Origin: a bacterium
GTDB taxonomy: Bacteria > UBA9089 > UBA9088 > JAGUXG01
Assembly (NCBI GenBank): GCA_020061965.1
Contig: JAGUXG010000211.1
Location: 1 to 38,159, forward strand
Direction: 5' to 3'
Length of the DNA stretch: 38,159 bases
The position numbers and the translations under genes were made by a program. Below the pieces are notes generated by a model. The model made no database searches, was not told where the DNA came from, and saw nothing but the letters and a program-made list of their open reading frames with translations. Below, piece after piece: positions 32,766 through 33,732 of this stretch (within the stretch, counting starts at the first letter, position 1; each line of letters begins with the position of its first letter).

Positions 32766-32896
32766 ATATTGGTATAATAACAAATGGCAGGAGACCTTTA
32801 GTGAAGATGCAACAAAGATAAAATGGATAATTCCAGAGGTAGCACCAGCATCCTCTGGCACAGTTAGCTTTACAGTGGAGGTGAAGTAATTGTAAA

Positions 32897-33406
32897 ATGG
32901 AAAAGGCGTTTAAGGTTATAAATGAGATGTCCAAAAAGGGCATACTTACCGATTATGCAATCTGTGGTGCAGTTGCAACAATATACTATACTGAACCCTT
33001 TGATACTTATGATGTTGATATATTTTTCATCCCTCCTGAAAAGGAGAAAATGATTATATTAACGCCATTTTATGACTGGTTATTAAAAGAAAAAAAATAT
33101 AAAGCTCACAAGGAATACATTCTTATAGGGGAAACACCTGTTCAATTTGTTCCTACTGCTACTTTTTTAGAAGAAGAGGCTGTTAAAAATGCTGTTGAGG
33201 TTGTTTATAAGGAAATGAAATTAAAAATTTTAAGGCCAGAGTATCTAATAGCGGTATTTTTGAAGGTTTATAGATTAAAGGATAAGGTAAAGATAAAAAA
33301 ACTTCTTGATGAGACTGAAATAAATAGAAATCTTCTGATGGAAATCTTAACAAAATATAACTTAAAAGAAAAATTTCAAGATTTTATGGAGAAATACTAT
33401 GAATAA
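32897..33406 (+). CDS. Predicted nucleotidyltransferase-fold protein (toxin-like), family uncertain
   Basis: 169 aa. ICGAVATIYYTEPFDTYDVDIFF fits the NTase hG[GS]-x9-13-DhDh pattern. The C-terminal helical region contains LKILRPEYLIAVFLKVYRLKD. Confidence 0.45.
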   Translation: MEKAFKVINEMSKKGILTDYAICGAVATIYYTEPFDTYDVDIFFIPPEKEKMIILTPFYDWLLKEKKYKAHKEYILIGETPVQFVPTATFLEEEAVKNAVEVVYKEMKLKILRPEYLIAVFLKVYRLKDKVKIKKLLDETEINRNLLMEILTKYNLKEKFQDFMEKYYE

Positions 33407-33569
33407 TTTAATTGCCAAAAATGAAGGAGGGGTAAGAAAATACAGAGAGAAAATCCTTAAAACAAAAGAGGAATATCGTCAATGGCTTGCAAAATTACCT
33501 TTTGAAAAAAAGATAGAAATTCTTAATAAGTTAAAAAGAAGGGAAAAATTCCTAAAAAAATTTAAGTAA
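33399..33569 (+). CDS. 56-aa basic helical protein overlapping the upstream stop (ATGAATAA), not in the ORF track
   Basis: Hand translation gives MNNLIAKNEGGVRKYREKILKTKEEYRQWLAKLPFEKKIEILNKLKRREKFLKKFK. The 8-nt overlap suggests translational coupling. Confidence 0.4.
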   Translation: MNNLIAKNEGGVRKYREKILKTKEEYRQWLAKLPFEKKIEILNKLKRREKFLKKFK

Positions 33570-33656
33570 AATGAGGCAAGAAATGAAGAGATTGCTAATT
33601 TTGATAAATGGGTGCTGTGCTAGTTTCAGGCAGATGTGCTGGCTAATGGCTATCTT

Positions 33657-33732
33657 AAAGATAAAATGGATAATTCCAGAGGTAGCACCAGCATCCTTTG
33701 GCACAGTCAGTTTTACTGTGGAGGTGAGGTGA
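33657..33732 (+). pseudogene. 76-nt orphan copy of the DUF11 tail (direct repeat of 32814-32889)
   Basis: 70 of 76 nt are identical to 32814-32889, including the stop position. It sits inside a chimeric 53-aa frame (33571-33732). Confidence 0.8.

Follow-up and report, generated by a model that had tools for sequence, protein, structure and literature searches.

Here, we report a mobile two-gene cassette of about 680 nt, essentially two open reading frames (ORFs), that encodes a nucleotidyltransferase (NTase) with a predicted MenT1-like fold and a small basic partner and lies between 76-nt direct repeats of the 3' end of a surface-protein gene. It was found on a bacterial contig (NCBI GenBank assembly GCA_020061965.1, contig JAGUXG010000211.1; GTDB lineage Bacteria; UBA9089; UBA9088; JAGUXG01), of which positions 1 to 38,159 of the forward strand were analyzed (38,159 nt; hereafter, the window). 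Repeats of host sequence were far commoner around relatives of the cassette than around control positions, which makes an insertion footprint a reasonable reading, and we tentatively favor, at a little under an even chance, an insertion with long target duplication, in which the last 76 nt of the target were duplicated and 87 nt of the donor's right-hand neighbor were carried along. The bracketed region and the related gene tails of the window are as follows.

30145-30459, + strand: tail 1 (orphan), a 315-nt frameshifted relic of a DUF11 3' end without a gene body upstream
32540-32889, + strand: tail 2, the end of surface gene 2
32814-32889, + strand: upstream repeat copy, within tail 2; last 25 codons and TAA stop of surface gene 2
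32887-33569, + strand: mobile two-gene cassette, delimited by DNA homology to copies in other contexts
32897-33406, + strand: 169-aa MenT1-like NTase, putative toxin (fold match, invariant motif residues)
33399-33569, + strand: 56-aa basic partner, putative antitoxin, overlapping the NTase gene by 8 nt
33570-33656, + strand: 87-nt spacer with host-like GC content (0.402), a GAGG ribosome-binding site, an ATG at 33584, and signal-peptide-like codons
33657-33732, + strand: tail 3 (orphan, downstream repeat copy), 76 nt, in frame with the preceding spacer
37749-37988, + strand: tail 4, with which the intact 1028-aa SNase-LTD-DUF11 gene (34902-37988) ends

The two repeat copies (32814-32889 and 33657-33732) were in direct orientation and 70/76 identical (BLAST E 4e-27 over 74 nt); ungapped similarity collapsed immediately beyond both ends, and the pair enclosed 767 nt (32890-33656). 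An earlier note on this DNA had described this pair, and the comparison bore it out. The note had treated the repeat as two copies of a gene end; the pair is real, but the window holds four copies of this DUF11-type gene tail, two of which form the pair. It had taken the upstream copy for the last 25 codons and stop of the surface gene, and these are indeed the codons of the tail, but as assembled, the gene is out of frame with its own tail. Both ORFs lie within the 767 nt, as had been stated, but they are not alone there, since the last 87 nt are the start of another gene. The repeated sequence encodes the last strands of the C-terminal DUF11/CLIPPER domain and is host sequence, not element sequence.

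Among the four tails, tail 3 was nearest to tail 2 (92%, versus 78-79% to tails 1 and 4), with which it had a VAPASS variant in common. Over the last 76 nt (30383-30459, 32814-32889, 33657-33732, and 37912-37988), tail 1 paired with tail 4 and tail 2 with tail 3 (92% for either pair, against ~78-80% between groups), so that the copies stand in nested A-B-B-A order; farther upstream, tail 1 resembled tail 2 instead (88% over 197 nt, a stretch that takes in an insert common to both and absent from tail 4). The tails are thus mosaic, and recombination among them has therefore happened at the locus. Tails 2 and 3 are a mosaic in their own right, with no difference in the first 41 nt and six in the last 35 nt (p 0.007). 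Polarized against the outgroup tails 1 and 4, two clean differences were derived changes in the coding copy (tail 2), both of them synonymous, and the changes of orphan tail 3 included one nonsynonymous S-to-F, as predicted by duplication followed by decay of the noncoding copy. Tails 1, 2, and 3 are each followed by a defense- or toxin-type gene (an MNT-HEPN fusion, the 169-aa plus 56-aa pair, and a SoFic-like Fic gene, respectively); the sequence right after tail 3 starts AATGGGTGTGCC. In tails 1 and 2 (30272-30330 and 32702-32760), we also saw an extra hairpin-rich insert of ~50 nt, with short repeats (CGACTAT units) and the perfect palindrome GTCCATAGTCTATGGAC, which tail 4 and the tail of a sister contig (L054) lack.

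The bracketed DNA was judged AT-rich by eye in the earlier note, and computation agreed: 32890-33569 had a GC content of 0.284 and 32890-33656 one of 0.297, whereas the window averaged 0.402 (standard deviation, 0.029; 680-nt windows), and 32890-33569 was the lowest-GC 680-nt stretch anywhere in the 38 kb. Cassettes in five hosts had GC contents of 0.28-0.30 within flanks of 0.36-0.41. DNA homology to the window cassette extended over 32887/32895-33568 in the loci L007 and L006 (91%) and over 32885-33571 in L002 (86%), and the NTase gene was 96.5% identical in nucleotides to that of L054. Deviant composition, together with DNA copies 91-96% identical in unrelated contexts, shows that the bracketed genes are foreign and horizontally mobile. 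Protein homologs of 60-70% identity occurred in metagenome-assembled genomes (MAGs) labeled Elusimicrobia, Armatimonadetes, Aerophobetes, WOR-3, and Nitrospirota and in further MAGs labeled Hydrogenedentota, KSB1, Bacteroidetes, Verrucomicrobia, and others.

In six other contexts, cassette homology ended at 32885-32896 on the left and at 33564-33571 on the right, within ~10 nt of the two ORFs; the flanks there were unrelated to the window, and none was a DUF11 tail. Cassette copies 86-92% identical in DNA (L002, L006, L007, and L049) likewise came without a DUF11 tail. The earlier note had proposed that an element inserted and brought a replacement tail with it; a foreign mobile unit and a recurrent footprint are borne out, but the boundaries in these six contexts show that the tail was not part of the cargo. 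To the left of the cassette, L006 (~42 nt, without the gene body) and L002 (~20 nt) carried scraps of a different, type IX secretion system (T9SS)-type tail, which shows that imprecise pieces move from one site to another. The L006 scrap and the L007 repeat had left edges that agreed only approximately (~9 nt off), and this agreement was not used as evidence.

No recombinase or mobility domain was found among the ORFs and domains of 30000-35000, nor in the bracketed unit, for which the earlier note had already reported the lack of a recombinase. ORF and domain checks of the window gave no integron integrase, and the cassette ends had neither attC nor terminal inverted repeats (no inverted repeat at 33500-33660). 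A scan of the unit for promoter- or terminator-like sites gave counts not above those of shuffled sequence. The Shine-Dalgarno of the NTase gene lies inside the last codons of tail 2 (GGAGGTG, 13 nt ahead of the cassette ATG). Co-orientation of cassettes with the upstream gene (27 versus 11) was judged not clearly beyond ordinary gene-order bias.

Recurrence of the footprint was surveyed at 45 loci by comparing 700 nt upstream with 1,100 nt downstream of the NTase gene, with 560 pseudo-cassette positions inside those same loci as controls. Flanking direct repeats at E < 1e-3 were present at 18/45 cassette sites and 26/560 controls (Fisher p 4e-11), an enrichment of about nine-fold (40% of sites versus 4.6% of control positions); at E < 1e-6, the counts were 14/45 and 15/560 (Fisher p 7e-10). 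The repeats were host-specific, 22-154 nt long, 80-94% identical, and hugged the cassette. The host sequences repeated included the following.

L003: RtcB 3' end (host gene confirmed with Pfam)
L042 and L044: ThiC 3' end (host gene confirmed with Pfam)
L021: 3' end of an Eco57I-type methyltransferase (Pfam)
L018 and L022: methyltransferase-like ends (...LYGLTEEEI...), judged from sequence only
L030: aroC stop and the first 14 aroK codons (host genes confirmed with Pfam)
L007: T9SS sorting-domain tail (Pfam)

At L030, the kinase P-loop is kept in the downstream copy and lost from the upstream one. Copies away from the functional gene showed every state of decay, from six synonymous differences and no other in L003 to stops and frameshifts in L021 and L044. 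Over all pairs, codon differences between copies comprised 25 synonymous and 31 nonsynonymous changes; a general synonymous-only divergence, which would have implied a coding history of both copies, was rejected, as it was seen only in L003 and L007.

Several of the control positives were other small cassettes with flanking repeats of their own (L050, L003, and L044). In L050 (1-1342), a DUF433 plus DUF5615 (PIN-like) toxin-antitoxin pair lies between 73-nt, 88% identical copies of a T9SS-type tail, the second of which is followed at once by the NTase cassette, forming a tail-cassette-tail-cassette array; in L050, only ~42 codons of the NTase gene are present before the sequence becomes unrelated. 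In L003 (5215-6168), terminator-like copies of 49 nt that are 98% identical enclose a pair of 156 aa plus 58 aa. The unit in L044 (9220-10048) is a 123-aa gene enclosed by 87-nt copies (87% identical), and one of these copies lies inside the 3' end of a convergent 292-aa gene.

Between cassette and downstream repeat copy, the 87-nt spacer had no similarity to any tail of the window and no other match in the window or the loci, and its interpretation as a diverged upstream part of a tail or as part of the cassette was rejected on those grounds. Contig L054 (1,112 nt, from a sister sample) carries a DUF11 tail, the identical junction TAA-TTGTAAA-ATG, the cassette, and then the start of the spacer: the first 37 spacer nt are kept (33/37) right after the cassette and there encode MKRLLLLILALIFWA. 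Since this start (ribosome-binding site, ATG, and codons) is common to both contigs, 33570-33656 is a gene's 5' end. The window joins spacer and tail 3 into one 53-codon ORF (33571-33732), in frame and called as a gene by the Joint Genome Institute (JGI), in which a signal-peptide- or lipobox-like start (MKRLLILINGC...) is fused to the last 25 DUF11-tail codons. Synonymous divergence (dS) between window and L054 was 0.087 in the cassette, comparable with the 7.9% divergence between the upstream and downstream repeat copies, versus 0.5-0.6 in the tail just upstream (p 6e-6). The history of the locus therefore includes extra recombination: either the tails were scrambled by conversion among paralogs, or the cassette was exchanged more recently than its flanks. 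At ~570 in L054, an extra A in an A-run splits the NTase gene into ORFs of 68 and 63 aa, and the toxin gene may be inactivated there.

Under insertion with a long duplication of the target, a fragment made up of the cassette and 87 nt of its previous right-hand neighbor (ribosome-binding site, ATG, and signal-peptide codons) would have entered the chromosome right after the surface gene's stop codon, joined there by host repair or recombination enzymes. At that moment, a second copy of the target's last 76 nt would have arisen on the far side. The upstream copy would then preserve the end of the surface gene and supply both read-through transcription and the Shine-Dalgarno for the cassette; the downstream copy (33657-33732) would be a functionless relic that by chance fell in frame with the carried-over start codon, giving the 53-codon ORF. 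In favor of this history are the footprint across the family, the closeness of tails 2 and 3, the polarized changes, the similar size of the divergence between the two copies and the dS of the cassette, the travelling T9SS-type scraps of L006 and L002, and the repeat-flanked small cassettes of L050, L003, and L044.

Several points weigh against this history. The clustering of all six differences in the last 35 nt is unpredicted by simple duplication and drift and points to a recombination breakpoint or conversion tract. The spacer is a genuine gene start, common to L054 and in frame with tail 3, which a collapsed downstream gene predicts as well. Although both cassette junctions recur in L054, the tail there is just 83% identical, and the contig stops 26 nt short of where a downstream copy would begin. 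Another orphan (tail 1) and the mosaic structure of the tails show that the locus leaves relics and undergoes gene conversion without any cassette. Within the survey, several positives are not independent (three methyltransferase loci and two ThiC loci), and the repeats of L026, L036, and L038 may be unrelated; independent events number roughly nine to thirteen. Finally, neither an empty site nor a close relative of the locus was found in the searched collections: exact-protein look-ups with the NTase, Fic, 56-aa, 53-aa ORF, and MNT-HEPN proteins returned the source contig or nothing, the 1028-aa neighbor had no homolog beyond 34% identity, the contig with the nearest aspartate carbamoyltransferase relative (85%; L051) was not syntenic, and one metagenome scan gave three loci, none of them an empty site. 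This history supposes such a site, with a single tail, before insertion.

Old local duplication or recombination between the tails, the fallback of the earlier note, is a strong rival. Almost as probable as the favored history, in our estimate, and likewise a strong rival, is that tail 3 is the relic of a tandem paralog. The cassette would then simply lie in a spacer of ~20 nt between two DUF11-tailed surface genes, the second of which later lost its body when codon 24 became fused to the last 25 codons through an internal deletion; the repeats would be the ends of the two genes themselves, kept similar by gene conversion. This would account for the ribosome-binding site, ATG, and signal-peptide codons that open the spacer and for the same start after the cassette in L054; once the cassette is removed, gene 2 stop and spacer ATG are 20 nt apart, and the in-frame fusion in the 53-codon ORF fits. 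So does the setting, in which DUF11-tailed genes form an array that includes a further tail without a body (30145-30459) and in which the tails are mosaic (tail 1 like tail 4 at 92% over the last 76 nt and like tail 2 at 88% upstream), and the pattern of 0/41 and then 6/35 differences resembles a conversion tract. However, L054 ends too early to show this tail on the downstream gene, and a specific internal deletion plus conversion would be needed. Nor can the paralog history explain why, across the family, the ends of single-copy housekeeping genes (RtcB, ThiC, and aroC/aroK) are repeated; beside that real and recurrent footprint, the window would be a coincidental mimic.

It is improbable, in our estimate, that the replacement end was borne by the element without an integrase. 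In that case, a circular or linear unit of tail and cassette would have recombined with a homologous tail through the host's homologous recombination, Campbell-type or anchored by homology on one side, leaving one tail from the donor and one from the recipient. All six differences between the L003 RtcB copies, and five of six in L007, are synonymous, as if both copies had evolved as coding sequence before being brought together. The downstream copy in L007 has variants of the functional tails in L050 and L006, tail scraps travel with the cassette in L006 and L002, the exact TAA-TTGTAAA-ATG junction is common to window and L054 behind tails that are 83% identical, and the window pair is mosaic. 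Against this stand the close relatives of the window cassette that lack a DUF11 tail, and homologous recombination would work poorly on a 76-nt arm of 83-92% identity. After a Campbell crossover, differences should lie to either side of the exchange point, which does not fit a run of 41 identical bases; the L054 tail is no near match for the 3' part of the upstream copy in the window (6/35 differences); and the predicted junction of an 843-nt circle (...GGCTATCTT joined to the tail start, running into TTGTAAAATGG) has no available example. Chance similarity or an assembly artifact, for which nothing speaks beyond the metagenomic origin of the assembly, is scarcely credible given the repeat E value of 4e-27. 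A second assembly of the contig, the JGI copy (Ga0394678_26052, sample 3300037880), agrees with the window save for 5 single-nucleotide polymorphisms in 15 kb. The two copies differ at six positions and so are not a collapsed repeat, and the left edge of the downstream copy lies outside any repeat, which makes a graph misjoin unlikely there.

The structure of the NTase was confidently predicted with AlphaFold from 52 homologs (pLDDT, 91.9). A sequence-level search of the PDB with the family profile gave no match, and a fold search was therefore needed. The top five PDB fold matches of the model were all MenT1/MenAT1 of M. tuberculosis (template-modeling [TM] scores of 0.63-0.73; best TM 0.73, E 1e-6), followed by TM1012, LnuA, and ANT(2''), and G24, D39, and D41 of the catalytic G[GS]...DxD motif were invariant in the 52 homologs. 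The modeled protein thus has a MenT1-like fold. It had no significant match in Pfam, NCBIfam, or PADLOC, and none to AbiEii/DUF1814; two homologs (P0003 and P0049) passed the PF09970 (DUF2204) cut-off at 27-29 bits over the N-terminal 45 residues only, and the window protein had no significant match to that family. The 56-aa gene directly followed the NTase gene in 35/46 loci, never lay elsewhere in those loci, and encoded a protein without a Pfam, NCBIfam, or PADLOC match.

Given the MenT1-like fold and the tight linkage of the 56-aa gene, we call the pair a MenT-like toxin-antitoxin module, in which the putative toxin may act on tRNA 3' ends and the 56-aa protein may serve as the antitoxin. 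In MenT systems, the toxin transfers nucleotides to the acceptor ends of tRNA, and small MenA antitoxins neutralize it (PMC10435456). The cassette resembles MenAT/AbiE systems (MenT1 Rv0078A, PDB 8AN4/8AN5; PMC10435456) in the predicted fold of the 169-aa protein, the G...DxD motif, a linked small partner gene, and wide horizontal spread. It differs in that sequence identity is only 14-15%, homologs match PF09970 (DUF2204) rather than DUF1814, and the 56-aa partner gene, placed downstream in an overlap with the NTase gene, is not detectably similar to any known antitoxin.

Few bacterial genes are as mobile as toxin-antitoxin modules, and cassettes of this kind are common in chromosomal integrons; to our knowledge, the movement of free-standing chromosomal copies without a transposase or integron is largely unexplained. 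Like integron cassettes, the unit described here is compact and promoter-less, has one or two ORFs, and relies on upstream transcription; unlike them, it has no attC-like 3' inverted repeat, no integron integrase, and no attI in the window, and its brackets are host coding sequence. With integrase islands in gene or tRNA 3' ends (attL/attR), it has in common that direct repeats of a 3' end bracket foreign DNA and preserve the gene end; here, in contrast, there is no recombinase in or beside the unit, the repeat is not carried by the element, and the repeats vary in sequence and length from host to host.

The closest parallel was described for restriction-modification (RM) gene units as insertion with long target duplication (Nobusato et al. 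2000, Gene 259:99; Furuta, Abe and Kobayashi 2010, PMC2853133). In those cases, genes lie between repeats of 46 bp to >400 bp and mobility genes are absent, start or stop sites often fall within the repeats such that neighbor genes survive, the insert in one case had a GC content well below the genome average, and empty-site genomes were at hand for comparison (PMC2853133). Furuta et al. suggested DNA breakage, common to RM systems, as the driver (PMC2853133), and a review from the same group describes this mode for RM systems only, ascribing toxin-antitoxin mobility to carriage by other elements (PMC3874152). The present cassette is likewise a small addiction-type unit without a transposase or integrase, has long, variable direct repeats of host sequence and a deviating GC content, and its repeats (22-154 nt across loci) often span a stop or start codon with neighbor genes intact. 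Measured against the 2010 criteria, the repeats exceed 30 bp (76 nt), the insert is below 20 kb (767 nt) and free of mobility genes, and repeats are in excess over controls; the cargo, however, is an NTase toxin-antitoxin-like pair and not RM genes. NTase cargo with an RM-like footprint argues against DNA breakage by the cargo as the driver and for host repair or recombination making the duplication.

We consider it a conceivable, if unlikely, generalization that promoter-less toxin-antitoxin cassettes of this NTase family, and apparently other small cassettes, spread behind and between expressed genes by a general recombinase-free pathway that duplicates 20-150 nt of the target, the same as for RM systems and independent of cleavage by the cargo. 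A bolder version would have the polymerase-beta-type NTase of the cassette itself help join or fill the ends. What is new is a cargo class for a described but little-known insertion footprint, together with an uncharacterized MenT-like cassette family; the footprint is extended from RM systems to cargo that does not cut DNA, across many phyla. Annotation gains a practical rule: where an orphan copy of a gene's 3' end turns up a few hundred bases beyond that gene, it often signals the recent insertion of a cassette. What the window itself yields is modest, namely one defense/toxin islet interleaved with conserved tails of possibly phase-variable surface-protein genes. Its neighboring genes are as follows.

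30496-31374, + strand: MNT-HEPN fusion gene, first gene past orphan tail 1 (Pfam NTP_transf_2 and HEPN)
31423-32889, + strand: surface-protein gene 2 (signal peptide, Propeptide_C25-like region, FG-GAP, fn3, C-terminal DUF11/CLIPPER; Pfam)
33780-34817, + strand: Fic plus winged-helix gene, SoFic-like, first gene past tail 3 (Pfam Fic, 5.5e-21; PADLOC SoFic, 2.4e-60)

As assembled, surface gene 2 is split over three frames (ORFs 31408-31638 and 31632-32777, with the tail in the third frame). Both frameshifts fall at heptanucleotide tandem repeats, (GGTTCAA)x3 at 31602-31622 and a CCATAGT/CCACAGT run at ~32693-32712, and one extra unit at 31602 plus one fewer at ~32702 restores an uninterrupted 488-aa ORF (31423-32889). 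Slipped-strand phase variation may thus switch the gene off, rather than the gene being dead. The observation of heptanucleotide repeats also extends to 30252-30285 and 37835-37862. In AT content, 29575-30144, which adjoins orphan tail 1 on the left, ranks second among the stretches of the window (GC content, 0.309); it holds two small minus-strand ORFs (29507-29740 and 29790-29999) without family matches and may be another small foreign cassette.

No known RNA family was detected in the window at gathering thresholds. On the minus strand, 22165-22780 holds a gene for a PemK-type toxin and, upstream of it, a small partner, between TamB and NosD/beta-helix genes; this cassette was not counted as repeat-flanked, as only a weak match of 31 nt (77%; 21965-21995 and 22812-22842) was found around it. 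Two dispersed copies of a ~142-nt direct repeat, which are 86% identical and show small indels, lie at ~17204-17345 and 27614-27755, the latter copy between the aspartate carbamoyltransferase gene and a PHP-domain gene. An aspartate carbamoyltransferase cluster ~85% identical to that of the window includes a protein named Candidatus Desantisbacteria. The spacer between the Fic stop codon and the 1028-aa gene (34820-34860) holds three copies of GGTTGTCAT.

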